Positions 6,436 to 56,810 of a DNA stretch of 64,000 nt are shown piece after piece. This stretch comes from Candidatus Altiarchaeota archaeon (GTDB lineage: Archaea > Altiarchaeota > Altiarchaeia > IMC4 > QMZM01): positions 9,726 through 73,725 of the forward strand of contig JAYEGX010000055.1 of the NCBI GenBank assembly GCA_034659295.1. Reading direction: 5' to 3'. Position numbers and translations under genes: made by a program. The notes under the pieces were generated by a model. It was given only the letters and a program-made list of their open reading frames with translations, ran no database searches and was not told the origin of the DNA. Numbering within the stretch: the first letter of the stretch is position 1; every line of letters begins with the position of its first letter.

Positions 6436-6460
6436 ATAGAAAACGTTTATTTAGATTAAC

Positions 6461-11245: not shown

Positions 11246-12262
11246 TTGCCACAACATAAGATGAAAAAAATAAAGCTTGCTATTGTGGGACTGGGCGTAA
11301 TCGGTAGAGGGGTTGTAGAGATACTTTTGGGGAAAAAAGAATTCCTCAGGGACAGGGGGTTGGATTTGGAGGTTGTTGCCTTATGTGAGATAAATGGCAG
11401 CATAGTCTCTGATGGTGGGGTTGATTTGGAGAAGACCTTGGAGCTTGCGGGAAGGGGGGAACTGGATAAACACAAGCAGTGGAGCAGTAGTAAGAGCATG
11501 GAGGTCTTGGGGGAGGTTAATGCAGATATTGTTTTAGAGCTGACTCCGGGGAACATAGACGATGGGGAACCGGGATACAGCCACATAAAGAAGGCCCTAG
11601 GTAATGGAATGCATGTGGTCACCTCCAACAAGCCGCCAATAGCATTACATTACAGGGAATTAGATGAGCTTGCAGGAGAGAGAAATCTAAAATTAAGGTA
11701 TGAGGCCGCTGTTGGAGGGGCTATTCCGATATTAAACCTTCACCAGAAATGCCTGCAGATTAATGAGGTGAGATCTATCTACGGCATACTTAACGGAACC
11801 ACAAACTATGTCCTGAGCAAGATGGTAGAGGACGGCCTCAGCCTGGAGAATGCATTAAATGAGGCGAAAGAACTGGGTATAGCGGAACAGGACCCCTCAT
11901 ACGACATCGACGGAGTGGATACCGCCTTGAAGGTGATTATATTAGCTAATTCCATGCTGGATATGGATGTTGAATTTGGGAACATGAAGATTCAGGGTAT
12001 AAGGGACGTAACCCCCGAAGCGGTGGATTTGGCGAAGAAACACGGGTACGTTATTAAATTAATCGGTGATGTACGCCGCATGGAGGTTTCACCCCGCCTC
12101 ATACCCGTAGACCACCCCCTGAATGTGTCAGACAGCCTTAATGCTATTATGATAGACTCTGATGTCGCCGGAGAACTGACCCTTGTGGGTCATGGCGCAG
12201 GCGCCAGAGAAACAAGCAGCTCGATATACTCTGACGTAATCGAAATCGCAGAAGGGATTTGA
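11246..12262 (+). CDS. hom: Homoserine dehydrogenase
   Basis: 338 aa. N-terminal NAD(P)-binding KLAIVGLGVIGRGV. Catalytic-domain motifs GILNGTTNYVLSKM and ALKVIILANSM. Confidence 0.85.
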   Translation: MPQHKMKKIKLAIVGLGVIGRGVVEILLGKKEFLRDRGLDLEVVALCEINGSIVSDGGVDLEKTLELAGRGELDKHKQWSSSKSMEVLGEVNADIVLELTPGNIDDGEPGYSHIKKALGNGMHVVTSNKPPIALHYRELDELAGERNLKLRYEAAVGGAIPILNLHQKCLQINEVRSIYGILNGTTNYVLSKMVEDGLSLENALNEAKELGIAEQDPSYDIDGVDTALKVIILANSMLDMDVEFGNMKIQGIRDVTPEAVDLAKKHGYVIKLIGDVRRMEVSPRLIPVDHPLNVSDSLNAIMIDSDVAGELTLVGHGAGARETSSSIYSDVIEIAEGI

Positions 12263-40164: not shown

Positions 40165-40652
40165 AGTTGAGTATCTCCTGGGACTATGAGGACGTCTTTC
40201 TCTTCATTGTTTTCTATGTAGTTAACCCGGATGTATTCCCTGAAAAGCTTGCTCTCTGTTTTCACTTCCTGCACCGAATTAAGCGGTATATCCAGGACCA
40301 CATCAAGCTCCTTGCCGATAATTCTCTTGTTGGTTAAGTACAGGCTCATGTACTTATGGGAGCGCCTCCCCAGCAGGCGACCCCTCTTGGAGGGAAACAA
40401 GACATAACCCTGGTCTATGCTCTCCAGGATTATTGACTCATCCTCGTCGGTTCTGGGGGGAATAACCTCCTTCTCAAAAGACATGAAAATCAGGTAGCTG
40501 CCGAACACCGCCAACAGCATGGCCAGAAAGCCTACCATGAACGGGAAACCAGTCCACAGGTTGTATACCAGAGCCAGAATCAACGCTATAACAAAACCCG
40601 CTATTACGCCCGTATATCCCAGAGCCCTTAAATCAGATTTATCCAATCTCAT
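40128..40652 (-). CDS. Membrane protein: 2 TM helices plus a cytoplasmic PH-like (bPH/YdbS-type) domain
   Basis: 174 aa. Two N-terminal helices, then a domain with a bacterial PH-like pattern (LYLTNKRIIG). Confidence 0.4.
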   Translation of the reverse strand: MRLDKSDLRALGYTGVIAGFVIALILALVYNLWTGFPFMVGFLAMLLAVFGSYLIFMSFEKEVIPPRTDEDESIILESIDQGYVLFPSKRGRLLGRRSHKYMSLYLTNKRIIGKELDVVLDIPLNSVQEVKTESKLFREYIRVNYIENNEEKDVLIVPGDTQLWIQKLRELGVA

Positions 40653-40703: not shown

Positions 40704-42380
40704 TCACCATATAGGACCCTTCGGGGGGCCAACCGGTTTAGGTGGTGTGATCCTATCCTTCTTGTATGTCTCAAATTCAGCCTCCTCTGCCATGTCAGCA
40801 ACGCCTGAAAGCCACGGGACCTCAAGGGCTGAGAAAGCCACTATCATCATAGCCAGCCAGTCCATCAAGCCCATAGCAAACAAAGGTGCTATAATAATCA
40901 GGAGATAACAGGCCAGACCCATGCCCACCCTGAATGCCTGCTCCCCCACCAACCCGGTGGGCATGTGCACAACAGCTAATGTGATGCCCACAATAATCAA
41001 TGCCTCAATGAATTGGGTGGCAATCCACCAACCTGTCTGGTAGAGCATTTCATTACCCAGCCTCCTGGTTAAATGCAGGGAGTTCAGGAATATGGTGAAC
41101 GGGAAGAGTATCGCCCACAATATGACCATGAAGTACCTTAACACCAGCACGGTTATGGCAAAAAGATAGAAGATTATCTGGAACAGGGCTATGAATAAGC
41201 CAGTGAAGAAGGCGATTGCCATTATGCTCAGGTACTCGTAATTCAGGGAATTAATGCACTCGGTGCACATGAACTTTTTCGCATCCTCAATATCCACTAA
41301 AGTCATTGTGTAGGCAGACAGTATGTGGGTGAAGTCTAAGAGCAGCTGCATTATGGGTATGGTCAGGATGATAAGTCCTATGGAGATAATCATCCTCAGG
41401 AGTGTTGATTTAGCCCGCGCTCTTCCCAGAGGTGAGGCTGACATGAACAATAGATAAAAGACTGTTACAGCAATGCCGAGTATGTAGAAGGGTTCGAGCA
41501 GGTGTATGAAGAAATCCAGTGTGTGGACAACAACCGGCTCGGTAAGGTTAGGTTTAAGCAGGATGAAGTATTCTATGTCATTGCATATGTCTTCCATCTT
41601 GTCCAGGACACCTATTTTTATGCCAAGGTATCCTACAAGCAATCGTCCTGAAATCTTCTTGAACTCACCCCTGAATGATTTAAAAATAGGGGTTTTAACA
41701 CTCCAGTCAGATAGTCTTAATCGAAAACTCTCCATTATACCTGAGTGGTGTATTCCTGCTGTGCTTGCGACGATACTCTGCGCCCAGAACCCTACCTCCT
41801 CGGTCGTGTGGCTTGAGGTCATTACACCCTCAATCCATGTATCGGCTGTGGTGGAGCAGTTCTCGATGTCCAAGCCCTCCCTCTCACCCTTAACAGAGGC
41901 GTAGATGTGGTGGCCGTTGTTCATGGTGAAATCAAAGTATTTGGCGGCTATATCAGAGAGGTTGTCGTTGTCTATGACTCCAGGGGTGTCGGTGTCGAAT
42001 CTACAGCCCCTCCCCTCCACCAGCGGGCTTTCCGTAAGCTCCGTATACCCCACGTCCAGACCCTTCTGGACTACAATCATAGCCCTCTCTTTCGTCTCAG
42101 TGCATACCTCCTCTACGGTGGCTTTAAGGGCATTGCAGGTGCCCCTCTGCATCAGCTCGGCGTTTTCAATGAATCGCACACAGCGACTGTCTATTCTACA
42201 TTCTCTTATGTATTCCCTGTATTCAGATGTCCCTGGTAGAAGCCTGCAGGTGCTTTGCTCCACCCCCGCAAGTTCTTCATTCCCAGGAGACGATTCCCCC
42301 AACTCTAAGGCGCTCACGCTAGCTGAAAAAAATAAGGCGAACAACGCCAGCAACACCATCCCTTTTTTTCCGTAATCCAT
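40704..42380 (-). CDS. Member 6 of the paralogous polytopic membrane family, with a large (~270-aa) extracellular N-terminal domain
   Basis: Likely start MDYGKKGMVLLALFALFFSASVSA (signal). The family core follows: LLEPFYILGIAVTVFYLLFMSASPLGRARAKSTLLRMIISIGLIILTIP...LYQTGWWIATQF. Confidence 0.55.
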   Translation of the reverse strand: MDYGKKGMVLLALFALFFSASVSALELGESSPGNEELAGVEQSTCRLLPGTSEYREYIRECRIDSRCVRFIENAELMQRGTCNALKATVEEVCTETKERAMIVVQKGLDVGYTELTESPLVEGRGCRFDTDTPGVIDNDNLSDIAAKYFDFTMNNGHHIYASVKGEREGLDIENCSTTADTWIEGVMTSSHTTEEVGFWAQSIVASTAGIHHSGIMESFRLRLSDWSVKTPIFKSFRGEFKKISGRLLVGYLGIKIGVLDKMEDICNDIEYFILLKPNLTEPVVVHTLDFFIHLLEPFYILGIAVTVFYLLFMSASPLGRARAKSTLLRMIISIGLIILTIPIMQLLLDFTHILSAYTMTLVDIEDAKKFMCTECINSLNYEYLSIMAIAFFTGLFIALFQIIFYLFAITVLVLRYFMVILWAILFPFTIFLNSLHLTRRLGNEMLYQTGWWIATQFIEALIIVGITLAVVHMPTGLVGEQAFRVGMGLACYLLIIIAPLFAMGLMDWLAMMIVAFSALEVPWLSGVADMAEEAEFETYKKDRITPPKPVGPPKGPIW

Positions 42381-42384
42381 TCTC

Positions 42385-43461
42385 TCAGTAATCCTCTGGT
42401 GGCTTGATGACAACCTCCTCCTCCTCAAAGGGTTTCCTCTCAATTGTTGTTTCACTCACTACCACAGCACCGCTGCTTAGTGGAGCGGCCTGGACTATCT
42501 CGAACATGAAAATCGACAGCCCCATCCAGTTCATAACACCCAGTATCATGAAGGGAACAGCAAACATAAAGATAAGTGATGTAGCGTATATGAACTCCAG
42601 CGGGAGATTAGGTGATATAACAGGGAGAGTCGCTACTGTCACGGAGACAATGATTAATCCCACAGCCCAGCCCAGCTGCAAAAAAATCCAGATGATAGTC
42701 TGCTCGAACATCATCTTCCCCGCGTTTCTGGTTAAGTCCCATGAATAAAAGAATATGGTTACCGGCAGGAGAACAGCCATCAACCCCGCCATGATGTATC
42801 GTATGAACAGTATCAGATACAGGGCCATTAATAGCACAGTATCCAGGAGGAATATCTCTATACCACCATACCTGTGTATGAGGGTTATTTTCACGAAGGT
42901 ATCAAAGAGATCCTGAGCAGCCGCCCGGAGCGAACCCAAGGCTATTGTTATATCAGCAAGGTTCATAATCTGAGATGTCAGGCTCCCGGAAACATAATAA
43001 AGCAACTCGACGAGTAAAGGGGATACAGATATGAGAACCAACCCGATAATCAGCTTACCAAACCATTTCTTAGCCCTTGCCCTGTTCAGCGGAGACTGTG
43101 AGACAAAGATTATATAGAACCCCGTTAACATTATGGCCGCAATATAAAAGGGCTGCATCAGGTTAATGAAGAAACCCATGAAATGCTTTATGCTCCACAT
43201 AGGTGGGTTGGCTTTTATCAGGGAGGGCATATTATCGAATACCGATAAATAAAAGTAATGGATAAGGTTAGCCGAGTATATAATAATCCCCTTCCTGGCC
43301 ATTTTCGCTGCTTCACTGGTTAACATATTGAGAACTCCGCTTAATCCTATCGAGTAACCAGTGTATCCTTTGGTTTTAGCAGCGGAGACTGGGGGGATAG
43401 AGGCTAACACTAAAAGGAGTAATACAACACCTACCACCAGATTTTTTGTTCTTGTTTTCAT
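42385..43461 (-). CDS. Paralogous polytopic membrane protein (family member 5), with a VirB6/TrbL-like topology
   Basis: Signal peptide plus 6 or more TM helices. Family motif LMQPFYIAAIMLTGFYIIFVSQSPLNRARAKKWFGKLIIGLVLISVSP...MFEQTIIWIFLQL. Confidence 0.55.
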   Translation of the reverse strand: MKTRTKNLVVGVVLLLLVLASIPPVSAAKTKGYTGYSIGLSGVLNMLTSEAAKMARKGIIIYSANLIHYFYLSVFDNMPSLIKANPPMWSIKHFMGFFINLMQPFYIAAIMLTGFYIIFVSQSPLNRARAKKWFGKLIIGLVLISVSPLLVELLYYVSGSLTSQIMNLADITIALGSLRAAAQDLFDTFVKITLIHRYGGIEIFLLDTVLLMALYLILFIRYIMAGLMAVLLPVTIFFYSWDLTRNAGKMMFEQTIIWIFLQLGWAVGLIIVSVTVATLPVISPNLPLEFIYATSLIFMFAVPFMILGVMNWMGLSIFMFEIVQAAPLSSGAVVVSETTIERKPFEEEEVVIKPPEDY

Positions 43462-44684
43462 GGTAAAAAGTCACGAAGGTGCTGTGCCCATATCAGGGGG
43501 AATATTATCAGCATCGCGTATATTGTAGCCCCAAGCACGAAATCCACGATATTGACTGTTGCAGGCATGGCCTCATAGAAGTCATGAAGCATGATTTCTG
43601 CCCCGGCAACCCCCACCACAGACCCTATTGCTCCACCGAGGAGTAAACCCCACCAATTAAGAACCTTTCCCGTCTGCAGCCCAATCTCCGCCGTAGATGG
43701 GCCTATAGCCAACACACTCATGAGGTCATACATGCCCCGGAGGTTTGTGAACGATATCTCGGCGTTCAAGACAACATGCTCTTCTATTGTGGTGCCGATA
43801 CCGACAAATACAACAATGATTAAGGCAATGAAGACCTGGAGGAATATCCACACAATCAACTGCTCCAGCAGTTTCTTGCCTATGCCCTTAAACCATGGGA
43901 GGCTGTAGAACAAAACCCCCAGGGGGAATAATACCATTAAGAGCGTGATAAGTATGTGCCTCAAACCCAGCACTATGTACGGGATGAAGGACATAGCAAA
44001 AAGCAGGGTGAGATAAGGGAGTCCAAGATCCGTATACGGTACCGCCGTCAAGGCATAAACCCAGAACAGGTTTTCGACTGCACCTCCCAGAGCAGCCTTT
44101 ACCTCCTCACCGCTTACCAGACTGAAAACAGACTCAGTCATCTCCTCAGACAACCCCAATAGCAGGTTTATTAGGGGTATGGATAGGGAGATAACAACCA
44201 TCGAAACCAGCAACCTGAGCAGGATATCCTTTGCCTTAGACCTTGATGAGGGCGATACGGGCATGAAGAGCAGATAGAATCCCACAGTTAATATAACCAG
44301 CACATAAACTGGTTGCAGTATCCTTATGAAAAACGCTATGAGCTCAAATATTAAGGCGTCGTGTGGTGAGGGATTGGACACTACCGCCACATGATAGTTG
44401 TTGGGGAATGACATGGCATACTTGGGCATGAATCCTCCATGGATTATTTTAACAACAAGAATCATTCTAAGAAAGTACCCCATGCCTTCACTCAAGAAAG
44501 TGCCGGTTTCTATTAATCCCTCGCTTTTCCAAAAGCTTTTTATATTACCCCATTCCCTTGATAAAAAGCCCTGTGAGAAAACGTTCGTGGAGAAGACTAT
44601 GATTAACAACAGAACCAATACTACCTGGTAATTCCTTTCCCATTCAATTTTCATTTTTTTTATGGTAAAAAGTTTCTGAACCAT
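43458..44684 (-). CDS. Paralogous polytopic membrane protein (family member 4)
   Basis: ILQPVYVLVILTVGFYLLFMPVSPSSRSKAKDILLRLLVSMVVISLSIP...LLEQLIVWIFLQVF. Confidence 0.55.
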   Translation of the reverse strand: MVQKLFTIKKMKIEWERNYQVVLVLLLIIVFSTNVFSQGFLSREWGNIKSFWKSEGLIETGTFLSEGMGYFLRMILVVKIIHGGFMPKYAMSFPNNYHVAVVSNPSPHDALIFELIAFFIRILQPVYVLVILTVGFYLLFMPVSPSSRSKAKDILLRLLVSMVVISLSIPLINLLLGLSEEMTESVFSLVSGEEVKAALGGAVENLFWVYALTAVPYTDLGLPYLTLLFAMSFIPYIVLGLRHILITLLMVLFPLGVLFYSLPWFKGIGKKLLEQLIVWIFLQVFIALIIVVFVGIGTTIEEHVVLNAEISFTNLRGMYDLMSVLAIGPSTAEIGLQTGKVLNWWGLLLGGAIGSVVGVAGAEIMLHDFYEAMPATVNIVDFVLGATIYAMLIIFPLIWAQHLRDFLP

Positions 44685-45622
44685 ATGAGCATCAACGCTG
44701 GAGTAAGCACGAGACTGAACACACCAACCAACAAAATCAAATCAAACCCGAAATTCCATAAAAATCCCGCAACCGAAAACTGTATATACATAAATCCCGG
44801 CTCTTTGGATATCATTGCTATTGCAGCAACAGCAACTACCACAGCATTAAATATCTGCAGGGAAGACCAGAGTATTGTCTGCTCCAACATGTTCCTGCCT
44901 ATGTTCTTGGTGAAATCGAAGGAGTACAGGAATATGGATAACGGGAGGAGTATAATCCACAAGAGAACAGCCAGATACCTTAATATAAGCATCAGATACG
45001 TCCCCCAGACAAGAAAGAAAAGAGGTAGGAAGGCGTAATACCCCAGCTCTACATTTATGAGACAAGACCACATATGCAGCTTTTTTAAACCCTCTATCAC
45101 CTTATTCAGGGTGTATGTGTAGTATGCGATATCAGCCTGTCCCAGAACAGATGAGGTGATGTTCTCTGTCATATAAAGGGTTATGGTCATTATTTGAGGA
45201 GCTAGTGATATCAAAGCCAGTGAAATAAACAGCTTCACCAGCATGGATTTCGCTTTATTCCTTCCTGAGGGGGTTGACGAAACAAGTATAAGATAAAACC
45301 CTGTTATCGATATGGCAAGCACATAGAAGGGTTGTAGAAGCGAAACAAAAAATCTTATTAAATCCAGCACTATAGGATCCTGGGGTGAGGGATTCATCAA
45401 AATAAAATCCCCCAGGTTGGCTGATAGCGCATCAAGCCCCCGGGTAGCATAGCTGGAAGCGACCCAGTAGTAAAACCATCTCTTTGCTAGATACGCAATA
45501 GTCATAGCTGAACCTTTGGCAGTTGCCTTCCCTGGTACATCTTTTGCACAAACAAAAACAACGATAGAGGATATTATCAATAACGCTGCTATGACCAGGA
45601 TGTATTTTCTCTCTTTTTTCAT
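44660..45622 (-). CDS. Paralogous polytopic membrane protein (family member 3)
   Basis: LLQPFYVLAISITGFYLILVSSTPSGRNKAKSMLVKLFISLALISLAP...MLEQTILWSSLQIF. Confidence 0.55.
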   Translation of the reverse strand: MKKERKYILVIAALLIISSIVVFVCAKDVPGKATAKGSAMTIAYLAKRWFYYWVASSYATRGLDALSANLGDFILMNPSPQDPIVLDLIRFFVSLLQPFYVLAISITGFYLILVSSTPSGRNKAKSMLVKLFISLALISLAPQIMTITLYMTENITSSVLGQADIAYYTYTLNKVIEGLKKLHMWSCLINVELGYYAFLPLFFLVWGTYLMLILRYLAVLLWIILLPLSIFLYSFDFTKNIGRNMLEQTILWSSLQIFNAVVVAVAAIAMISKEPGFMYIQFSVAGFLWNFGFDLILLVGVFSLVLTPALMLIWFRNFLP

Positions 45623-45624
45623 GG

Positions 45625-46824
45625 TTACGGAGGTAATAGTTTCTGGAAAAAGGTGAACATTAATATAGGCCCCAAGAGCAACATGAACATACTAGTCCAG
45701 GTGAATATGCTAATGAAGAAGGGCTCTCCCGGGATATCTAATGCATCCATAGCACCTCCTATGAGGGGTATATCGCTCTTATGGATTCCTATACCGTATG
45801 ATTCATACATGCTGGTTGGGACGATTGATATTCCCACAGCGATTACAACAACCGTGATGCCATAGAAAACCTGCAGGCTGCTCCATAAAAGAGTCTGCTC
45901 CAACATAGTCTTCCCGAATCCCCGGGTGAACTCAAAAGATGAGAAAAAGATGGTGAAAGGCAACAGGAGACCCCACAAAAAAACCATAAAGTATCTGAGG
46001 GTTAACATACCATGTATTCCTATAAGTATAAGCATCAACAACAACACGAAGGGTGTGGTCCACACAATCTCAATCTCCACCAGCTCGATTGCATGCAAAG
46101 TTTTATGTAGTTGCTTAAGGTTTTTACTGGATTTTAGGTTACCAAAAAATCCGGTTAACGTGCCAACACCACCATAAAAAGCATTGGGGGCGTTTGCCAA
46201 CATAACCAGGTTCCTTATGACACATATCATCGAGGAAAACTCTGATGCTGCTATCGAAACATAAGCCTTAGGGTTTAACTCATCCCCTATAATCTCACCG
46301 GTAGAGTTCTCCGTCAACGATAAAAGCACCCCCACCAGCTCTGAAGAGAATGAAACCAGAACCATGCTAATAATAAGCTTAGCCAGCAACGACTTAGCCC
46401 TAGCCCGACCCAGAGGGGAGCCGGGTATGAATATTATATAAAACCCGGCCATTATTATAGCCAGTATATACACAGGATAAAGCAAACCCACGAAATACCT
46501 GAGAAGGTTAAGAGCTGCCGGGTTCTTGAGGTCGGGATTCAACAAGATGTATTTAGCTAGATTATTCTCTATGTCTTCTGCGATATTAGTCATCGAAGAC
46601 CATACCAAACGCATGTAAAGCACCCTCTGAGCTAGAGCAATATTTTCACCACTAGTAAAAAGGCCGAGAACTCCTTTCGCCAGAGGGTTTTGCTCTACCT
46701 TGCCGAAAATGTTAGTGGGGTGTATAAGAGAACTCTTCCCAGAAGAAACTGCAAACGGTATGATATTCAGGACTAATACTGAAACAATCAAGACCGCAAG
46801 CAGTTTATTCCCCCCTGAATCCAT
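45625..46824 (-). CDS. Paralogous polytopic membrane protein (family member 2)
   Basis: LLYPVYILAIIMAGFYIIFIPGSPLGRARAKSLLAKLIISMVLVSFSS...MLEQTLLWSSLQVF. Confidence 0.55.
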   Translation of the reverse strand: MDSGGNKLLAVLIVSVLVLNIIPFAVSSGKSSLIHPTNIFGKVEQNPLAKGVLGLFTSGENIALAQRVLYMRLVWSSMTNIAEDIENNLAKYILLNPDLKNPAALNLLRYFVGLLYPVYILAIIMAGFYIIFIPGSPLGRARAKSLLAKLIISMVLVSFSSELVGVLLSLTENSTGEIIGDELNPKAYVSIAASEFSSMICVIRNLVMLANAPNAFYGGVGTLTGFFGNLKSSKNLKQLHKTLHAIELVEIEIVWTTPFVLLLMLILIGIHGMLTLRYFMVFLWGLLLPFTIFFSSFEFTRGFGKTMLEQTLLWSSLQVFYGITVVVIAVGISIVPTSMYESYGIGIHKSDIPLIGGAMDALDIPGEPFFISIFTWTSMFMLLLGPILMFTFFQKLLPP

Positions 46825-49800
46825 TTATCTCTTACCTCTTAAATCCTCCAACCAGCTTTCAAGCTCCATCCTGCCCACCCCAAGGAATTTATATGAGAAC
46901 ACAGCCACAACCAGAATCGCCAACAAAACAAGAATCTCAGGGGAAAGCAGCGGCGTGTAAATCTCCACAACATTAAACCGCACAACCTTATTCAGGGAGC
47001 GTCCTGTTGGGTCAACATCACCATGGTGTTTAATCTCCAGAGAGAATGTTTTATGGGCATTTAATGTGAACTCAGCGTATCCATACTCTCCAGTAACCAC
47101 AAAATATTCACCGTCTTCCTCGCTTAAACCATTAGGGCTTAGACTGGAGAGGTCAACATCCTTGCTCCACACATCAACCCTCTTACCTGACTCACCCCGG
47201 TTTTTATCAATATTATATAGCCATAACTTAACAGTCACCTCTGAGCCAGGCGATAACACCACACCCTCCGGCTCAACCACATAAAACAAATCAACAGCAT
47301 CCCTGATTTTGAACTCATCAGCATCGCTGAGATTAAGCTCCCTGTGCTCATAGAAGGTATCTATAACTAGTTTACCGTCCTCAAACTCATCCCGGGGTAT
47401 TATGTCATAATCCTCCTCCCCTGAATAGAGGTGCCTGTAGGGCTCATAGTTTGTTCTAAAGTAGAGCGTGTAGTAATGTCCTCCAGGAAACACAGCATCT
47501 GAGACGTTGTGCTTGAAGTCGACAACAATTAATTTATTAAACCCGCCCATGGATTTAGCAGCCTCCAGACCATACCAGCTCATATCCTCAATATTCTTAT
47601 TGTCGAAGATAACAAAATCATACCCCTTGCCCACATTCACGTTGTCCACGATAGATTTGTGGTTAACAGCCTCTATCTTAATGCTTTTCATCTGGGGTCG
47701 GACATCATAGCATACCTTCTCCCAATGAACCTCACACGCCTCTTTTGAGATTGTATAGACTTCATTTCCACCGTCATAGTATTCTACTGTGAGTTCTATC
47801 TCAATGCTCTTTTTGTCGTCTATCCCAAACTCTAGACACAGCTGGTTATCTGGATCAGAGGTAGCACCCTTAGGTATATATTGTATCACACCAGAACCCT
47901 GCGGGAGTTTCAGTGCGTATCCGTTTCGTCCCATAAGCCTTTCATCAACGGTTGGCATGCCGCTAACAGCCTCCCACGGACCCAGCCCGGTATCGAATCC
48001 CATCTCGAAGTCGCCGTTGACTATAACGCTGCCCTCATCCTCATGGAATGTTCTGTTGGATGTGCACGGGTTATCATATCTCTTATCCGGGGCACAGACG
48101 CAGTCATCTTTCTCAATCAAGCGGTCACCGTAGCAGGCCATATACAATGCATCCGATCTGAATTCATCAAAACAGTAGACCCGATTGTGCTCAAACTCGC
48201 ATTCAAGGAGACCTATCTCGTTAAGGTATCTGGTGCAGAGGTTGTCTATGGCCTGCTTGTTGTCCTGGATTGAGCCATCCACACAAATCCTTTCCACGAC
48301 AGGGTCATCAGAGTAATGGGTACATAGGAGTTCCTCGATGTCATCCCTGTATTTTAGGGGGTTCGTGTTAATACACAGTGGCCGCATTATGTCCTCCGGA
48401 TCGCATTCACATACTGGGGGAGGGTCACAAAATGTCTGACACTGCTCCGGGAATTCGTATTTCTCGAACTCATAACCGTAGCGGCTGCCTAAACCATAAG
48501 AGATGCTGCCTCCAGAGCTTGATTTCTTTTTTATTGTTGAATGCGAGATGGGGCTTATAATCTCACGGTAGTCTGCATCAGAGTCTCCTACAAAAAGGGT
48601 CATCCCCCTGAACAAATCCGGCTGTATGGTGAAGTTGATGAACCCGTAGGTGGTTATGAAATCCCCCTCCTTGTATCTTGTAGCGTCCAAGACCAGATGA
48701 TGGTATATGGGCGAATCCTTCCAGCCGCTTGCGCAGCCGTTGTATATCCAGGGCACCTTCTCCCAGTTATACACATGATATTCACTCTCTATCGTGCTTG
48801 TCTCCTGCTCATGATACCAGGACAGGATTTCCTCCCTCCACTGGTGCCAGCACTGATTACAGATAGCACAGTAAGGACAGCAGCAGGTGCAGGGACATAT
48901 AAGCATAATCTTCTCGCTAACTCCGCCGCACCAATCACAACAATACCCAACATTCTTATCAGCTAGAAGGAACTGGTAGTAGGGAGTAATTGCATGACAG
49001 TCACCACAGGGGCAGTCGCATTCCGGGCAGGTTTGGCACTCGTATCTGTCGCAGGCTGTATAAAACCGGTCCTCCCTGATGCCTGTTAGATAATCCTGTT
49101 TAGCTGTGAACTTTAGCTTCATGTATGAACTATTCACTACCTCGGATCTAAAAACATCAGAGTCCATGGTAAGCCTGGACCACCTCCCCAACTTGGACTT
49201 ATAGTATCTAACCGCCGTAATGTCCGAGCAACCGTCCGGGTCTTTACACTCGTAGGGCTCTGAAGCTATCCAGTAGGCGCAAGTCAGTTGGAAGGGTATG
49301 TTGGCTGTGTCGATTATCCTAAATGTACCGCCTTTAGACATCCAGATGTTTTCGCTTATGTTATAGATCTCCATCCGCTGCGGTTCCCCAAAAGGCAGCA
49401 TGCTACCAGAAGATAACCCAACCTTGAATTTTGTGCTGGCTTTAGCCCCACCCTCCAGTATATACTTGGTGAGACATAACGGCCCAGGAGCCTCCTGCTT
49501 CTGCTCTATGATGGTGTAGGGGTGGGCTTCATATTGCTGCGAACCCCCAATACAACTTGAACAATCCGTGCAAACAGACAACAGCTTCCACTTACAGTAT
49601 ATGTTATCCGAGCCCCAGATGCGCTCGTACCATGGAACCTCAAACTTCTCGAAGCCTGCCTGCCCATAGCCCACATCATTGCACTCCTCCGGGGGGCAGT
49701 CCCTCATAAGCTGGTATTGTGTGATAACCTCACATGGTATAGGATTCATCTGGTCAGGACCACCCCAGCAGTCGCCGTGTGGAGGTACTAACTGATTAGG

Positions 49801-51474
49801 CAGGCATTCAGGCGCCTCTTCTTCATCAGACTTGCATTCATCGTCCACGCCACGATAAAGCTTGCAGGGGCCTGTCTGCAGGGTACCGGGAGGATCATCC
49901 TCTGAATCGAAACCAGAGCATAAATCAAAGGGTGGAGCCTCACCATCACAATGCTCGTATTGTGTGGCATCATCGTCCATGGGATCAAAGGGATCGCATT
50001 CCTCTAACAGCTCACATGGGGTCCCATGCCGGCAGCTCCAGTCACATGCATCCGTCCTGTCCTGCCCGGAACCCACATACCTATCTGTATCAACCCCCTC
50101 CGCATAACCCCACGCGCCGCATTTAACTGGACCAGTCACCGCTATCAGGGGAGAGAGCATGAAAAACCTGACCCAGAGACCATGCCACGCCTTCGTTATA
50201 TCCTCCAGAGGAGGTCCCATAATGGTTCCAAGTATCACCTCCCCATCAGGCCCCTTAAACGTAACAGCGCTCTTGTTCGGCATCTCGTTGATGTACACAA
50301 AGACATCATTCCAGTTTTTCTGGTCCCGGATGTATAACTCATCGACTGAAAGCAGGTTAGCATTCTCTGTGAAAGAATACATCATATACGGCAGCTCATA
50401 GCAGTAGCTGTCATCCCTTAAGCCTGTTTTATAGCAGTAGAGTCTCTCGGACTCATCCATACCCCCAAGAGACCGGATGTAGTGCTTAGCCCAGGCCTCA
50501 AAAAATGTGACATAAACCTCATCCGCCCCAAGGAAGGTGTGTATGTTGTAGAAGGTTGCTGGTTCATCAGGCAGAGAATCATCACCTGATAAATCCGCTA
50601 AAGAAGCCGCTCCATCCATACTATGGTAGTGCTCGACAAGCGCCTTATACAATAAATCATTAACCAAAGTCCACGTATGGTTTGAGGCACCCCCATACGC
50701 CTCCAATATAAAACAACGTTTTTCAGCGTCCATAATCCAGTACTTCACCTGGTTCTCTCCGGTGAAATCCTCATAAGGCTGGAATTCACAGACCAGGGAT
50801 TCCTCATTCCACACGCATTTCTTGGTTTTAGAGCAAGCGTATTCTGTAGCGTATTCACTGCACCTGTAGGATGGCTTAGAGGCTGCGACCAAAAACCGGG
50901 AGGGGTTTATCACAAGCTCCATCTCCTGATCTTCACTTTCACCCCGCCCCAGATCACCTGTCCTGGTGCATCTGGCGATGGGGGTGGAGGAGTAGCCGAA
51001 TGCGTAGGAATCCTCCCGCTCGTATTGTCTCAGAATCCTGTCCTGGCTGGAAATGAAGGCATAGTCTTTTTCATCAACACTGCTGCCTTCATCCAACACC
51101 TCACATTCATCTAAATCCAACAACAGGGTCTTAAAGCAGTAATATCTGTTTCCGCCTTCTGTTTTCACATACACTTCAGGTTTTATGGTAATATTCGCCT
51201 CAGGGGTTCCATCGTTTGTTACATTAATGCTTCCGTTGTGATACAGGTATGCGTCCGCTATACCAGCGAATCCCAGGTTCTCATAATCCGGTGGTTCACC
51301 ATCTGATAGAGGCAGGTAGGGCACCTGATGACAGTTTGTATCCCCCCAATCACAGTCCTCAGCCTCGCTATAGGGCCCATAGCTTATGCCGCAGAGATCC
51401 TCCTCCTGGGCGGTTACAACGCTGAAAGAAAACAGGAACAATAAAGCTGCAGCATACAGGGGGAAGGATTTCAT
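46825..51474 (-). CDS. Giant (1549 aa) Cys-rich secreted protein with a C-terminal TM anchor. Adhesin or structural surface protein; first gene of the minus-strand cluster.
   Basis: Signal peptide MKSFPLYAAALLFLFSFSVVTAQ. Cys-rich throughout (e.g. CPCTCCCPYCAICNQCW, CDWCGG), with many N-x-S/T sites. C-terminal LLSPEILVLLAILVVAVFSYKF plus a charged tail. Its stop abuts the start of the next gene (46824/46825). Confidence 0.6.
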   Translation of the reverse strand: MKSFPLYAAALLFLFSFSVVTAQEEDLCGISYGPYSEAEDCDWGDTNCHQVPYLPLSDGEPPDYENLGFAGIADAYLYHNGSINVTNDGTPEANITIKPEVYVKTEGGNRYYCFKTLLLDLDECEVLDEGSSVDEKDYAFISSQDRILRQYEREDSYAFGYSSTPIARCTRTGDLGRGESEDQEMELVINPSRFLVAASKPSYRCSEYATEYACSKTKKCVWNEESLVCEFQPYEDFTGENQVKYWIMDAEKRCFILEAYGGASNHTWTLVNDLLYKALVEHYHSMDGAASLADLSGDDSLPDEPATFYNIHTFLGADEVYVTFFEAWAKHYIRSLGGMDESERLYCYKTGLRDDSYCYELPYMMYSFTENANLLSVDELYIRDQKNWNDVFVYINEMPNKSAVTFKGPDGEVILGTIMGPPLEDITKAWHGLWVRFFMLSPLIAVTGPVKCGAWGYAEGVDTDRYVGSGQDRTDACDWSCRHGTPCELLEECDPFDPMDDDATQYEHCDGEAPPFDLCSGFDSEDDPPGTLQTGPCKLYRGVDDECKSDEEEAPECLPNQLVPPHGDCWGGPDQMNPIPCEVITQYQLMRDCPPEECNDVGYGQAGFEKFEVPWYERIWGSDNIYCKWKLLSVCTDCSSCIGGSQQYEAHPYTIIEQKQEAPGPLCLTKYILEGGAKASTKFKVGLSSGSMLPFGEPQRMEIYNISENIWMSKGGTFRIIDTANIPFQLTCAYWIASEPYECKDPDGCSDITAVRYYKSKLGRWSRLTMDSDVFRSEVVNSSYMKLKFTAKQDYLTGIREDRFYTACDRYECQTCPECDCPCGDCHAITPYYQFLLADKNVGYCCDWCGGVSEKIMLICPCTCCCPYCAICNQCWHQWREEILSWYHEQETSTIESEYHVYNWEKVPWIYNGCASGWKDSPIYHHLVLDATRYKEGDFITTYGFINFTIQPDLFRGMTLFVGDSDADYREIISPISHSTIKKKSSSGGSISYGLGSRYGYEFEKYEFPEQCQTFCDPPPVCECDPEDIMRPLCINTNPLKYRDDIEELLCTHYSDDPVVERICVDGSIQDNKQAIDNLCTRYLNEIGLLECEFEHNRVYCFDEFRSDALYMACYGDRLIEKDDCVCAPDKRYDNPCTSNRTFHEDEGSVIVNGDFEMGFDTGLGPWEAVSGMPTVDERLMGRNGYALKLPQGSGVIQYIPKGATSDPDNQLCLEFGIDDKKSIEIELTVEYYDGGNEVYTISKEACEVHWEKVCYDVRPQMKSIKIEAVNHKSIVDNVNVGKGYDFVIFDNKNIEDMSWYGLEAAKSMGGFNKLIVVDFKHNVSDAVFPGGHYYTLYFRTNYEPYRHLYSGEEDYDIIPRDEFEDGKLVIDTFYEHRELNLSDADEFKIRDAVDLFYVVEPEGVVLSPGSEVTVKLWLYNIDKNRGESGKRVDVWSKDVDLSSLSPNGLSEEDGEYFVVTGEYGYAEFTLNAHKTFSLEIKHHGDVDPTGRSLNKVVRFNVVEIYTPLLSPEILVLLAILVVAVFSYKFLGVGRMELESWLEDLRGKR

Positions 51475-52140
51475 TTTCGTTTGTTATATTATTACCCAAA
51501 CAGTAATATATCCCATAGTCTGGTTAATTGATGGTTTTGAATAACCCCTTGTTTTTATGGTTAAGTATTTGCTTTATCAAATATTTAAGCGATAGGTGGG
51601 TGATTGATTCTGTCTTTTTAGGATCATGTTTTTACGGGAGACTGTAGGAGCGTGTTCAAGGGCTTAGGTGATCATAAGATAGGGGAACACAGGAAAACTG
51701 GTGGAATACACCCGGAAGAAACAAAAAAAAAGGGGGAGTTAAGCAAACCACTCTATTCTCTTTCTCAAGTTGTTGGATACGAACTTCAAATTGCTTAATA
51801 CGCTTTTCCAGTTGTTCGACGTATGCGTCTTTGTCGAGCATAAAGGCATATAATGCAAGCTCCTATTTCTGTTTATTGGTTTTAGCCTCCCAAAACAGAT
51901 AACTACATGAAGCTAAACACGTGCGATTTAACCTTTTATGAGCAGACTAGCATTTCACGTGAGTGGCTGTAAGGGCAACATCAGTTGAGGGTATGATCCT
52001 GGAGGTGAGAAGGAAGTTTATGTTCTACAGCATGTTCTTGGGCTTGTGAATGGAGCTAAGAGGGACGTAAAGATATTAAGCTGGAGAACTTAATAGTTAT
52101 TGTTGAACTGGATTATTCAACACAGCATAGCGTGTAGAGA

Positions 52141-55100
52141 ATGAGAAGGATTGCCTTACTGTCTATGATGGGAGTGATAGGGATTCTGCTGATGTTATTG
52201 GTTGCGGCAGCATCAGCAACAGTAGTTGTCTTAGATCCAGGTCACGGAGGCAAAGACCCTGGTGCTGTAGGTCCAACAGGATTACAAGAGAAAGATGTTG
52301 CTCTCCAAGTTGCGTTAAAGACTAAATCACTACTAGAAGCATCTGGGATAACTGTTATTTTGACCCGATCTACGGATACATATGTTAGTTTAAGTGAGAG
52401 GGTGAATATAGCTAATAATGCCAATGCGGATTTATTTGTATCTATTCATTGCAATGCTTTTACGGATCCATCAGCACATGGGACCGAGACATGGTATAGC
52501 TCAAGTGCTCCAGACCCGGATAAAGCAAAAAAACTTGCAGAATTCGTGCAATCTGAACTCTTATCTCAGCTAGGATTACGTGATCGAGGAGTCAAAAAGA
52601 ATGGATTTTATGTTATAAAGTATACAGATATGCCCTCTTGCCTAGCAGAATTGGCATTCATTTCGAATCCCAACGAAGAGGTACTTTTAGCAGATCCAAG
52701 CTTCCAGCAGAAAGCAGCACGAGGGATATATGAGGGAATTATGGATTATTTAGGGATATTTCCGCCTTGTTCTCTAGACTCCGTCTCAATACAACCAGAT
52801 TGCTCTGGAGGCTCCTCCCCCAAATGTGAAAAGGGTGAGCGAATCAAGATAGATGTAACATATAGCGGAGATTGCCCATCCACCGCGTATATACAGATTG
52901 GCGCCAAAAGCGGAGACGGTAAATGCGTCATAGAGCATACTGGCGGAAACATGGTGGGAATGGATATATCCTGCACTTCTTCTCCATGTACAGGCTACTG
53001 GACGATTCCAGAGATACCACCAAACTGCCTATGCAAGAATATGAATGCAGCAGGAGCTGGGATATATAAAGACAGCATCTCTCCAGAAAATTATCTCGAC
53101 GGCATAACAGCCACAGGGTCGTTTGAATTCTGGTGCCCTAAAGCCCCCGTCGCAGACGCAAGAGTCGGTAGAACAGCAGACGAAAAACTAAAAGAAATCA
53201 CTGTCAAAGTCGGCGACACTGTCTACTTCGACGGAGAAACATATTCCGTTGGGAAAATAACGGAATACAGCTGGGACTTTACCGGGGATGGAATATACGA
53301 CTGGAGCTCAACAACAACCGGAAAAACCACCCACCAATACAATGAAAAGGGGTCCTACATCGCCGAACTAAAAATCACCAACGACAAAGGCGAAACAGAC
53401 ACAGACATTGTTATCATCCACGTAGTAGAAGAAGAGGAAGAACCTACCTTCCTCTCAGATATCTGCCCCGCTCCGCCGAACGATTACTTGATGAGGATGA
53501 TATGTCTGGTTGTGCCCATCCTTTGTGTGATAATGAACATCCTGGTGCCAGTAATGTTTGTCCTAGTTGCCTTAGGGGGTTTGATGCAGCTGAGCACCGA
53601 CGGGGGGATAAAAAACAAGGGTAAACAGGTGATATTCAACACCATCCTTGGGGTGGTTATTATCTCAGCATTCATAGGTTTATCGGATTTATTGATAGAG
53701 GAAGTCAACATCATGGAGGTGTGTTTACTCGGGGAGATTCCGCCGCCTGCTTTAAGAGCGTATATTGATGCTGACCCGACCTCCGGACCCCCACCACTTG
53801 AGGTTTCCTTAACCGGGAGCGCATCCGGGGGAACCGCACCCTACACCTACAGCTGGGACTGTGGTGGAGGAACCCCAGAGGTGACAGGCTCAAACACCGC
53901 AACATGCACATACACAAGCGAAGGAACATACACTGTAACATTAACCGTAACAGACGCGGAAGATGGAACAGCCACAGCCACCCAGACAATAACCGTTAAA
54001 GTAGCTGAGTTAAAAGCGTATATTGATGCTGAACCGACCTCCGGACCCCCACCACTTGAGGTTTCCTTAACCGGGAGCGCATCCGGGGGAACCGCACCCT
54101 ACACCTACAGCTGGGACTGTGGAGGAGGAACCCTAGCAGTCACAGGCTCAAACACCGCAACATGCACATACACAAGCGAAGGAACATACACTGTAACATT
54201 AACCGTAACAGACGCGGAAGATGGAACAGCAACAGCCACCCAGACAATAACCGTTGGAGTAGTAGTTGAGTGCGAGGATCCGTCATGTGATGAGATCTAC
54301 GGTTACATAGACGGCGCCATCGCAGGCTTAGGGGTGGACGACAGTTTGGTGAGGGCTGTGATAAAAAAAGAAAGTGATTATCACCAGTGTTGCTTTGGCC
54401 CCTACATTGGGGTTACATGTGAGGAAGGTGAGGTCCTTAAATCACATGCTGGGGCTTTGGGTTTGATGCAGCTGATGCCGGGGACAGCCAGCGAGTTAGG
54501 CGTTGATCCTGAGGACCCGCAGCAGAATGTTGAGGGAGGCGTTAGGTACCTGAACACGCAGCTAAATGAATTTGGCAGTGTGGAGCTGGCTCTCGCCGCC
54601 TATAACATGGGGCCCGGGTATGTGGCGTGTTCGCTGGGTTATGATTGGCCTGTCTGTGCACAATATCCAGGATATGATCTATGTGGTGCCGGAGTATGTA
54701 AGGCTCCAGCTGAACGGAATTGGGCTTGTCTTAGTACATGCTCTATCCCTGCTGAAACATTAGGATACGTTAATGGCATAATGGGGATTATAGGAACATC
54801 TGCAGCGGATTGCAGTGATCTGCCTACGCCTACAGCATCCTTCACCGCAAACCCTCTAACAGGACCTGCACCCCTCACAGTCGACGTGGATGCTTCCGCT
54901 TCAACAGGAGCAACAACCTACACTTGGGGCTGGGAGGACGGAACCCCGGGTGGTTCAGGAGTAACTGCATCACACGAATACACAACCGACGGAACCTACA
55001 CCATAACCCTGACCGTATCAGACGGCACATACACAGACACAGACACTGAAACAATAATTGTCGGTTCGTTATCAGTGTCCATTGAATCACCACCTGATGG

Positions 55101-56031
55101 AGCATCATTTGCTGAAGGCGATACAATTGAGTTTCGTGGTACGGTAGGGGGCGGAACTCCTCCCTATACCCTCGAATGGGGTTCCAGTATAGATGGAGTC
55201 ATAGGTACTGAATCTGGTTTCTACTATGATGAATTATCTCAGGGAACGCATACCATTACTTTAACTGTAACAGACAGTAGCAGTCCTCAGAAAACAGGAG
55301 GTGCTACAGTGGATATAACAATAACTGAGCCGGAGTGTAGAGCAGTAATAGAAAATGGAGACCATGATGCTAAAATCGATGTCGTCTTCATTAGAGCATT
55401 TGACGCACAACCGGATGCGTTACCGCCTAATTTCGAAAATATGATAGACTCGGCAAAAATTGATTTTATTCACACAGTCCCTATCAGAGATAATACAGAT
55501 AAATTCAACTACTATTACTACACAAAAAAGGGCAGCGTGTATGCGGGTTCTAATGGTCTTTGCGCTGGGAGTTCTCCTCCCGGCTATATTACATACTGCA
55601 GTTTCGCAGACACAACCGCATACCTGCACAAAGAAACATGTAGGGACTGTTCGCATACGTCTGCAACTCTTGATCCCCCCATGCCGGGAAGCAGCTTCAC
55701 TGTCACAGATAATTTTCATAAGCATAAAACCTTCACTCATGAGGCGGGACATGCAATATTCAATTTAAGAGATGAATACTATGACCTGCTTCCAATCCAC
55801 CGGGAGCTTTCTTCAAACCCTAATATATGGTCAAGCCAGGCCAACTGTGAGGCAGATAGAACCTCTGAAGGCTGGACGGAAGCATGTGAGCAGATATGCG
55901 ATGCTAGTGGAACAAATTGTGTGGATTATTGGAGGCTGGATTATGATTGCATTATGAGAGTGCATATGAACGTGAATTTCTGTCCGGCATGCAGTAGGAG
56001 GATTAGTTGGGTATTTACTCTCTTTAATTAG
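52141..56031 (+). CDS. Giant (1296 aa) multidomain cell-wall-hydrolase-like surface protein: Amidase_3 (N-acetylmuramoyl-L-alanine amidase), PKD, a mid-protein TM hairpin, 2x PKD, SLT lytic-transglycosylase domain, PKD/Ig-like, and a peptidase M64-like HExxH metalloprotease domain
   Basis: Amidase_3 region [18 protein letters not shown]...[10 protein letters not shown]...TETWY...[12 protein letters not shown] region [11 protein letters not shown]...[17 protein letters not shown]...[12 protein letters not shown]64-like region [10 protein letters not shown]...[17 protein letters not shown] hairpin [28 protein letters not shown] / [18 protein letters not shown]. Confidence 0.7.
53750..54265 (+). 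repeat. Near-identical (~97%) tandem duplication (2 x 258 bp), each unit encoding one PKD domain
   Basis: ttaa(g/a)agcgtatattgatgctga(c/a)ccgacctccggacccccaccacttgaggtttcc... occurs twice (53750 and 54008) with only a handful of substitutions. Confidence 0.8.
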
Positions 56032-56039
56032 GGGTGTGT

Positions 56040-56810
56040 ATGATGGGAAAAAAAGAGGTGACATTGGCGGGGTTGATGATTCTATTTATTCTCAGTTCAA
56101 CCCCTGCAGTAGAGGAAGAAATGGATTTAACCAAGATTGTGGTGATAGGGCTTGAATTCAGAGGAGGCAGCCTCCATCAGAGGTCTGTGGATATAGCATA
56201 CAATTATCCGCCAGACTATAAGATTCCGCCGACAGAGGGGTTAACTGTTGAAATCCGCTCAAGAGACAACAGATTATTGAAGAATTTCATCCGCCCAGAC
56301 CCCAGGTGGGTTATTATATCACATGCAGGTCTCAGGTACCGGGAAAACGCTAGCTTTGACCTGATCCTGCCCTTCGTTAAGGGAATGGATTTAATCGAAA
56401 TATTTGATCGAAACAAAAGCAGATTAATCTCGGTAAATCTGGCTGAAGAGGTAAGGTCATTCTGTGCTGAGAGAAACGGCGTCTGCGACCCAGACTGTCC
56501 TAAAGGGGTTGACCCAGACTGTCCGACAATAGCATCCTCGACCTCAACAACAGAATCCATGGGGGGAGGGGATGATAGCCTGGCATATATTTTTGGGTTT
56601 GTGGTTGTTTTCGTCGCCGGATTCCTCATCTACAGGCGATACAGTGGAATAAGAAAGATGGAGGATACCCGGGAGAAAAGAGAGGAGATGATTGAGTGGA
56701 TAGAGAAACAGTTGAGGGAGGGTGAAGACCCTGAGAAACTCAAGACCATCGTCAGGTCACAGGGATTCGAGGAGGAACTGATTGACTACGTCGAGAAGAA
56801 GCTGATGTAG
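56040..56810 (+). CDS. Single-pass membrane protein: signal peptide, extracellular domain with a CDPDCPKGVDPDCP module, TM helix, acidic cytoplasmic tail
   Basis: Start MMGKKEVTLAGLMILFILSSTPA. TM LAYIFGFVVVFVAGFLIY. It lies immediately downstream of the giant hydrolase gene. Confidence 0.5.
   Translation: MMGKKEVTLAGLMILFILSSTPAVEEEMDLTKIVVIGLEFRGGSLHQRSVDIAYNYPPDYKIPPTEGLTVEIRSRDNRLLKNFIRPDPRWVIISHAGLRYRENASFDLILPFVKGMDLIEIFDRNKSRLISVNLAEEVRSFCAERNGVCDPDCPKGVDPDCPTIASSTSTTESMGGGDDSLAYIFGFVVVFVAGFLIYRRYSGIRKMEDTREKREEMIEWIEKQLREGEDPEKLKTIVRSQGFEEELIDYVEKKLM

Follow-up and report, generated by a model that had tools for sequence, protein, structure and literature searches.

The gene examined here lies at positions 52141..56031 (+) of a 64,000-nt stretch of contig JAYEGX010000055.1 (the window) from a Candidatus Altiarchaeota archaeon. 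From an ATG start it encodes a 1296-aa protein identical to GenBank MEA1924911.1, 'N-acetylmuramoyl-L-alanine amidase [Candidatus Altiarchaeota archaeon]', which derives from a metagenome-assembled genome (MAG) and is encoded on a contig of 82 kb. Arranged around a two-helix hairpin, the protein carries two murein enzymes with intact motifs, an amidase and a lytic transglycosylase, together with a peptidase-like domain. Profile comparison identifies the hairpin as a VirB2/TrbC-type pilin domain of type IV secretion systems (T4SS). Comparison with relatives shows this hairpin to be the constant core of the protein and the enzyme heads to be swapped, and gene order places the gene within a conserved VirB6-like cluster, as its variable member. 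With about even confidence, we read the protein as a mosaic, cell-bound Altiarchaeote murein hydrolase that would act on the walls of bacteria in contact. The original prediction, made from the letters of the window, had given the position and length of the open reading frame (ORF) exactly, and had seen in it an archaeal surface tool against bacterial walls with three murein-targeting domains.

Two murein enzymes and an M64-like peptidase

The N-terminal enzyme is an Amidase_3 domain (PF01520; 52225..52740, +; aa 29–200), which was found in Pfam with 211 bits against a cut-off of 27 (E 1.7e-62). It aligned to solved amidases in a single continuous stretch (4rn7, E 3e-39; 1jwq, E 7e-37), and H35, E50, H103 and E170 fall on identical residues of 4rn7, 1jwq and 5emi. 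From what is known of CwlV and AmiC, we take the first three to be the zinc ligands and E170 to be the catalytic Glu. The CwlD model matches the domain end to end, whereas the models of AmiA/B/C, the Gram-negative division amidases that carry a regulatory insert, match in two pieces, so the domain lacks that insert. Its nearest homologues are amidases of Bacillota, at ∼50–54% identity. The assignment made in the original prediction thus stands, and the sequence solidly supports a CwlD/CwlV-type amidase with intact motifs that is predicted to hydrolyze the bond between N-acetylmuramic acid (MurNAc) and L-Ala.

The second enzyme is an SLT domain (PF01464, GH23; 54307..54627, +; aa 723–829) with 61 bits against a cut-off of 21.3 (E 1e-16). 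The KKESDY block named in the original prediction is present (742–747) and holds the ES motif (E745-S746); it is followed by GLMQL (774–778) and AAYNMG (819–824; AYNMG, 820–824). ES, GLMQ and AYNMG are invariant in four orthologues. A profile of four sequences matched Slt70 (E 9.5e-8) with GLMQ and AYN aligned residue by residue. A Cys-rich insert of 4–14 residues after the ES motif interrupts this alignment and halts it before the catalytic Glu, which is therefore placed only by its motif and the Pfam envelope. The identification as a family 1 lytic transglycosylase with intact motifs is solid at the sequence level. The domain continues into a Cys-rich extension (54628..54825, +; aa 830–895) that is conserved in the homologues P0002 and P0003, with a ratio of nonsynonymous to synonymous substitution rates (dN/dS) of 0.24.

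The C-terminal domain (55327..56028, +; aa 1063–1296) contains HEAGH at 1200–1204, DEY at 1211–1213 (within RDEYY, 1210–1214) and a CIMR..FCPAC block. A three-sequence profile matched IgA proteases in the PDB (9qdh and 9ekk, E 5e-6; 3p1v/4df9, ∼1e-4), and the alignment covers both the HExxH..DEY and the C-terminal CIMR..FCxxC blocks. All three family members match Peptidase_M64 (PF09471), the best being homologue P0121 at 6.8e-8, and a word-index search with the domain yielded one extra homologue. An AlphaFold2 model built from the three-sequence alignment reached a predicted local distance difference test (pLDDT) score of just 33 and was unusable, so the assignment rests on profiles only. At that level we accept the domain as a divergent, IgA-protease-like member of the M64 family. 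The HEAGH..DEY motif and the M64 homology of the original prediction hold in this form, with the domain's own sequence remaining below the Pfam cut-off. Its count of three murein-targeting domains was overstated; since M64 is a protease family and not murein-directed, there are two murein enzymes and one peptidase.

The enzymes are separated by four PKD repeats, supported by Pfam and by matches to PDB structures. Repeat 1 (53200..53424, +; aa 354–428) matched both Pfam PKD and the PKD structures of ColH, repeats 2 and 3 (53764..54264, +; aa 542–708) were found by Pfam, and repeat 4 is followed by an Ig-like domain (54826..55326, +; aa 896–1062).

A pilin-type hairpin as membrane anchor

The original prediction had noted a signal peptide and a mid-protein two-helix hairpin, and had expected both halves of the protein to be displayed outside the cell. 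Both segments are present. The predicted signal peptide (52141..52218, +; aa 1–26) is a hydrophobic N-terminus, MRRIALL...AAASA followed by T, which ends in AxA; its cleavage site is taken from this motif. The hairpin (53446..53745, +; aa 436–535) consists of two transmembrane helices (∼447–486 and 494–524, from hydropathy), a Lys-rich loop and acidic flanks, with the conserved Cys442 and Cys528 at the outer ends. The distribution of charge fits an out-in-out topology under the positive-inside rule, from which we infer that both ends of the hairpin lie outside, in agreement with the predicted outward display.

To identify the hairpin, a hidden Markov model (HMM) of aa 436–535 and two orthologues was compared with 1.84e9 representative proteins. 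It returned just 14 matches. Ten of these were scanned against Pfam, and in all ten the top family was PF18895 (T4SS_pilin), with five above the cut-off of 26.6 bits. Four of the five are tandem-pilin proteins with 149–264 bits, two of which also match TrbC/VirB2, and the fifth is a stand-alone hairpin protein (P0142, 30.1 bits). The closest stand-alone homologues (109–181 aa) lie just under the cut-off at 24.5–25 bits. The two stand-alone homologues with a named organism come from Altiarchaeota/Altiarchaeales MAGs.

Aligned with hhalign, the hairpin family matched the bona fide PF18895 repeats at 98.2% (E 2.7e-14, 80 columns). The template repeats in this comparison were delimited by the query's own HMM; their identity as PF18895/TrbC is independent of it (149–264 bits). 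The two other hairpin types of the gene cluster, found in the VirB6-like paralogs and in a 969-aa protein described below, matched the pilin repeats at 96%, free of that circularity. The hairpin of the 1296-aa protein and those of the paralogs are thus each linked separately to the pilin repeats. A search of the hairpin profile against PDB sequences gave nothing significant. On the strength of the profile matches, we assign the hairpin to the T4SS pilin domains of VirB2/TrbC type.

The hairpin comes directly after the signal peptide in the stand-alone homologues, as it does in the orthologue of the ex4484_96 MAG. By comparison, the amidase, Cys-rich and PKD modules of the 1296-aa protein have been inserted between its signal peptide and its pilin domain. 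As the hairpin bears passengers of 435 and 760 residues on its two ends, assembly into a pilus homopolymer seems doubtful. In another assembly, a stand-alone hairpin protein of 181 aa, whose protein cluster includes a member named Altiarchaeales, is encoded outside the present type of gene cluster, directly upstream of a NosD/beta-helix protein (locus L010, 8215–9850).

Such an anchor bears on the possibility that the protein is a released antibacterial weapon, whose modules would be cut off the hairpin, perhaps by its own M64-like peptidase, and would diffuse like the enzymes of Halogranum. Secreted archaeal peptidoglycan hydrolases do kill bacteria (PMC12352652), and a peptidase domain in cis could mediate release. 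We nevertheless consider release improbable. The two membrane helices and the conserved Cys pair flanking the hairpin favor retention, no cleavage site is evident, and Pfam recognized no cell-wall-binding domain in the protein, unlike in the modular hydrolases of that study; only the PKD and Ig-like domains accompany the catalytic ones.

Swapped heads in a conserved gene cluster

Among the relatives of the protein, PKD repeats and an SLT domain follow the hairpin in four of five lineages, and the ends differ. The lineage of the window has the amidase head and the M64-like tail. The GMC4 MAG combines a DUF6298/glycosidase-like head with the same tail (79% identity over the shared part), P0003 carries Flg_new repeats and a Cys-rich tail, and the protein of ex4484_2 has a short head without a family match and ends soon after the SLT domain. 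That of ex4484_96 lacks SLT and carries a transglutaminase-like domain, along with a segment that by eye alone resembles a zincin. Purifying selection acts on the hairpin, SLT and M64-like parts (dN/dS 0.14–0.36, the highest value being that of the M64-like domain). A CHAP-like identity was considered for the heads of ex4484_2 and P0003 and was rejected, as neither Pfam nor the PDB supported it.

The transglutaminase-like cysteine-protease core was seen at two loci (L011, 7854–8990; L005, 1033–3930) and scores 23.7 bits in Pfam in ex4484_96. There the pilin protein includes it; in the P0003 lineage it appears, by eye, within a separate secreted protein encoded immediately downstream. We regard this as a further sign of module shuffling at the locus.

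The amidase head of the window belongs to a cassette unique to this genome (51530..53151), which comprises upstream intergenic DNA, the amidase and a Cys-rich domain (52756..53151, +; aa 206–337). The Cys-rich domain has no Pfam match and, by blastn, no DNA similarity to relatives. Similarity by blastn to the syntenic loci L001 and L004 ends at ∼51517/51529 and restarts at 53152/53443. The GC content of third codon positions (GC3) is 0.31 in the amidase segment, 0.56 in the hairpin segment and 0.57–0.60 in housekeeping genes. From its composition and boundaries, the amidase head is best described as a recently swapped cassette of foreign composition. Within the genome-specific intergenic DNA beside it lies a 61-aa ORF with a coiled-coil-like N-terminus (51656–51841, −), which may be a remnant of the element that delivered the cassette.

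A cassette of this kind could also arise by misassembly, with a bacterial amidase fragment joined to an archaeal gene. The low GC3 of the head, the lack of a counterpart in relatives and the Bacillota origin of the nearest amidases would fit such an artefact. The reading frame is, however, unbroken from the signal peptide through the amidase, Cys-rich domain and PKD repeat to the hairpin, and the DNA on both sides of the gene is syntenic with other Altiarchaeales assemblies at 83–89% identity (blastn). Different heads occupy this position in four independent assemblies, which indicates that the variation there is biological. The original prediction had named a chimeric misassembly as a possible objection; we saw no sign of one. 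Given the flanking DNA, a bacterial/archaeal chimera is very unlikely, and we regard the artefact as the least probable of the explanations considered here. The archaeal context described in the original prediction was confirmed in part. The window also encodes L15e, NMD3, RtcB, the RFC small subunit (∼1.2 kb downstream of the 1296-aa gene) and IleRS, whereas the S27e and L44e genes were observed only in a relative, at its syntenic locus.

The genes on the upstream side form a cluster on the opposite strand. Nearest to the 1296-aa gene and divergent from it is a gene for a giant Cys-rich secreted protein of 1549 aa with a C-terminal transmembrane anchor and no Pfam match (46825..51474, −). Orthologues of 1545–2210 aa occupy the same position in five other loci and in each case diverge from the pilin-enzyme gene. 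The layout of the giant protein (signal peptide, large ectodomain, C-terminal anchor) recalls that of the described Altiarchaeum hamus protein, the two being compared by description only.

Next follow five tandem genes for polytopic membrane paralogs of 583, 358, 408, 320 and 399 aa (40704..46824, −), which share 27–34% identity with the 320-aa paralog. One of them, modeled with AlphaFold from a 14-sequence alignment, reached pLDDT 80; we describe the family as VirB6/TrbL-like. Where the source names an organism, members of the family come only from Altiarchaeota/Altiarchaeales. Each of the four other loci spanning the region, ex4484_96, ex4484_2 and one more distant contig among them, likewise has exactly five paralogs. 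In the T4SS of R388, a VirB6 pentamer forms the membrane platform that recruits VirB2 (PMC12624023). The count of five matches this pentameric stalk and the five VirB6 paralogs of Rickettsia, and by analogy one idea is that the paralogs form a heteropentamer.

The remaining members are a 174-aa protein with two transmembrane helices and a weak bPH-like domain (40128..40652, −), which is conserved in every cluster and might have a VirB3-like role, and a second pilin-domain protein of 969 aa (37255..40164, −). The latter, for which orthologues exist, has a Cys-rich N-terminal domain, two PKD repeats, a pilin hairpin (96.5%, E 9.5e-10 against the pilin repeats by hhalign) and a variable C-terminus. 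A LAS/M15-like zinc peptidase was considered for its N-terminal domain from a conserved pattern seen by eye (SCHYGG..AVDF..HIHVS) and was dropped for lack of Pfam or PDB support. In ex4484_2 (locus L004, 15308–18018) the orthologue is split at the hairpin into two overlapping ORFs of 489 and 447 aa, by a frameshift or an assembly error, and its C-terminal part shows, by eye only, a motif like that of LmbE/PIG-L deacetylases (AHQDDD...HNNWGEYGHIHH). On the downstream side, 3 nt past the stop of the 1296-aa gene, starts a gene for a protein of 258 aa whose N-terminus is signal-like and whose C-terminal part holds a transmembrane segment (56034..56810, +); genes of 250–378 aa occupy the same position in relatives.

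The cluster lies between RFC and AI-2E transporter/PGM genes, with the same neighbors in three Altiarchaeales genomes (including ex4484_96). No VirB4-family ATPase was found in a scan of the window's 42 longer ORFs, every cluster gene among them, or in the annotations of the syntenic loci, and the cluster contains no integrase, relaxase or coupling protein. As encoded, it is therefore not a mobile element, nor does it amount to a complete T4SS. An integrative conjugative element was ruled out by the fixed synteny and the lack of integrase, relaxase and ATPase.

Elsewhere on the contig, a 424-aa ORF (9983–11257, −), overlapped by a long antisense ORF, contains a Cas12f1-like TNB domain (TnpB-type, E 1e-11), which points to an element of the IS200/IS605 family.

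Proposed role and relation to known systems

In the mechanism that we propose, the signal peptide would export the N-terminus of the 1296-aa protein, and the pilin hairpin would pass into the cytoplasmic membrane and out again, so that the Lys-rich loop would lie inside and the acidic flanks outside. Both halves would then face outward, with the PKD and Ig-like domains as spacers. Amidase_3 would detach the stem peptides from MurNAc, the SLT domain in the middle of the protein would cut the glycan strand and the M64-like zinc peptidase would probably cut a protein substrate. The hairpin would most likely dock the enzyme on a platform of the five neighboring VirB6-like proteins, so that the protein would amount to a VirB2-like subunit to which a VirB1-like module for breaching walls has been fused. 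The surface tool against bacterial walls that the original prediction envisaged is upheld by the two intact murein-specific domains and by a membrane anchor that probably faces them outward; the third domain belongs to a protease family that is not directed at murein.

The target would be bacterial, and the purpose may be killing or feeding, or else opening a wall for transfer. No genes for murein synthesis were found in the window, and we found no paper in the library searched that reports murein or pseudomurein in Altiarchaeota, although the matches were not gone through in full. Pseudomurein contains no MurNAc and so offers neither the bond cut by the amidase nor a 1,6-anhydro product, and it was ruled out as a substrate on these chemical grounds. 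Since a second murein-specific enzyme joined the SLT protein and no murein is reported for the organism, bacterial peptidoglycan would be the most economical substrate.

A further alternative is a self-directed or vestigial enzyme, in which SLT would be the VirB1 baggage of a T4SS-like module of bacterial origin and would either have no substrate or act on some polymer of the archaeon's own envelope. In its favor, the wall that VirB1-like hydrolases normally open is that of their producer (PMC12624023, PMC12102498), and one relative has lost its SLT domain. The purifying selection, the catalytic motifs that are invariant across four lineages and the later gain of the amidase, as well as the literature search above, speak against it, and we give the self-directed alternative little credence.

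The main rival is a surface-displayed depolymerase with which the archaeon would feed on detrital peptidoglycan and necromass polymers in the sediment for carbon and nitrogen, the hairpin being a mere anchor and no live bacterium being targeted. The heads of the relatives, an assortment of glycosidase-like and transglutaminase/protease-like hydrolases, look like a toolkit, cell anchoring would hold the products close, and other secreted hydrolases with lipobox-type signal peptides are encoded on the same contig. These are a 1319-aa GHL15+GH5 glycosidase and a 715-aa double alpha/beta-hydrolase esterase (2476–8608, +), whose lipobox-like signal peptides and domains suggest extracellular polymer degradation by the archaeon. 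A T4SS pilin domain encoded in a conserved VirB6-like cluster, beside a giant adhesin-like protein, nevertheless exceeds the needs of an anchor, and no genes for uptake or catabolism of MurNAc or muropeptides adjoin the gene. We therefore judge feeding on detritus to be unlikely, while taking it seriously.

Several results weigh against a contact-dependent murein hydrolase docked on VirB6-like proteins. The protein's own hairpin scores 10.9 bits against PF18895 (E 0.51), below the cut-off, and when aligned directly with the paralog hairpins by hhalign it falls into the right register with a probability of only 7.5%. Its own C-terminal sequence scores 16–22 bits against Peptidase_M64, under the cut-off of 26. 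The structural match of the paralog model to VirB6 is modest (TM-scores of 0.31–0.45, Foldseek E ∼0.02). The 64-kb window contains no VirB4, VirD4 or VirB11 ATPase, which leaves a working T4SS-like machine unproven. The DUF6298/glycosidase-like and transglutaminase-like heads of relatives are not murein enzymes, and SLT itself is missing from ex4484_96. Finally, cultivation-independent work has reported a double membrane in Altiarchaeales (PMC4975002); if present here, it would make the enzymes periplasmic unless the apparatus spans it.

Murein hydrolases of archaea have been described before. About 5% of archaeal genomes encode modular peptidoglycan hydrolases, two of which killed a bacterium (Strock et al., 2025; PMC12352652), and the supplementary table of that study has Altiarchaeota entries with other architectures. 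Like the 1296-aa protein, these enzymes are bacterial-type murein hydrolases that were horizontally acquired, domain-shuffled and exported. They are soluble and pair a catalytic domain with a cell-wall-binding domain (LysM, SH3, PG_binding, SPOR and similar), whereas the 1296-aa protein is membrane-anchored, joins two murein enzymes to a peptidase and is encoded in a T4SS-like cluster. Because it has no recognized wall-binding domain, it falls outside their definition. Large extracellular SLT proteins are also known from the DPANN lineages Woesearchaeota and Pacearchaeota and have been interpreted as serving to attach to bacterial walls or to degrade them (PMC8204110, PMC9723730). Compared by description only, these resemble the present protein in their very large size, their place on the archaeal surface and their lytic transglycosylase domain; they belong to another lineage, and no pilin domain or VirB6-like context is reported for them.

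Among bacterial systems, PrgK (pCF10), TraG (pIP501) and CwlT (ICEBs1) also combine an SLT/muramidase with a second peptidoglycan-cleaving domain, are membrane-anchored and outward-facing and occur with T4SS membrane components (PMC12102498). They open the wall of their own producer, have a simple N-terminal transmembrane anchor and a CHAP/NlpC second enzyme, and are encoded beside VirB4/VirD4. The 1296-aa protein differs in its archaeal host, its mid-protein VirB2-type hairpin anchor, its Amidase_3 as second enzyme and the absence of an ATPase nearby. The Ced/Ted systems for archaeal DNA import and the T4SS of Patescibacteria with VirB2 arrays (PMC12102498) possess a VirB4-type ATPase; as pilins they use small stand-alone proteins that carry no enzymes. 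The rvh T4SS of Rickettsiales (PMC2653234) resembles the cluster in its five tandem, highly divergent VirB6 paralogs. It is bacterial, complete with VirB4, VirB11 and VirD4, and has no pilin-enzyme fusions. As its genes are scattered across the genome in islets, an ATPase encoded elsewhere would not be unprecedented.

In the library searched, we found neither a link of Altiarchaeota to T4SS components or to this amidase nor a description of a pilin-hydrolase fusion. The statement in the original prediction that the protein is not a described archaeal system therefore needs to be narrowed. Murein hydrolases in archaea, including those that kill bacteria and the DPANN SLT proteins, are already published, and the table of PMC12352652 extends them to Altiarchaeota; what is new is the form anchored by a pilin domain in a T4SS-like cluster, and the interest lies mainly in that anchor, the VirB6-like genes around it and the exchange of heads.

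A broader possibility, which we put forward tentatively and rate below an even chance by a good measure, is that Altiarchaeales possess a chromosomally fixed, T4SS-derived machine. It would consist of a VirB6-like heteropentamer and a giant adhesin-like protein, with its ATPase encoded elsewhere or absent. Its VirB2-type pilins would carry interchangeable enzyme heads, and murein would be breached on contact for predation, parasitism or cross-domain transfer of DNA or protein.

Direct molecular evidence for archaea physically engaging bacteria is scarce, and for the soluble archaeal murein hydrolases bacterial killing was shown only in 2025. The 1296-aa protein offers three separately expressible enzyme domains with named predicted catalytic residues. 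Heads swapped between close relatives are the usual sign of an arms race or of shifting targets. If our reading is true, a murein cutter built on a pilin among five VirB6-like proteins would work across domains as a contact-dependent device, and T4SS-related machinery would be extended to Altiarchaeota.

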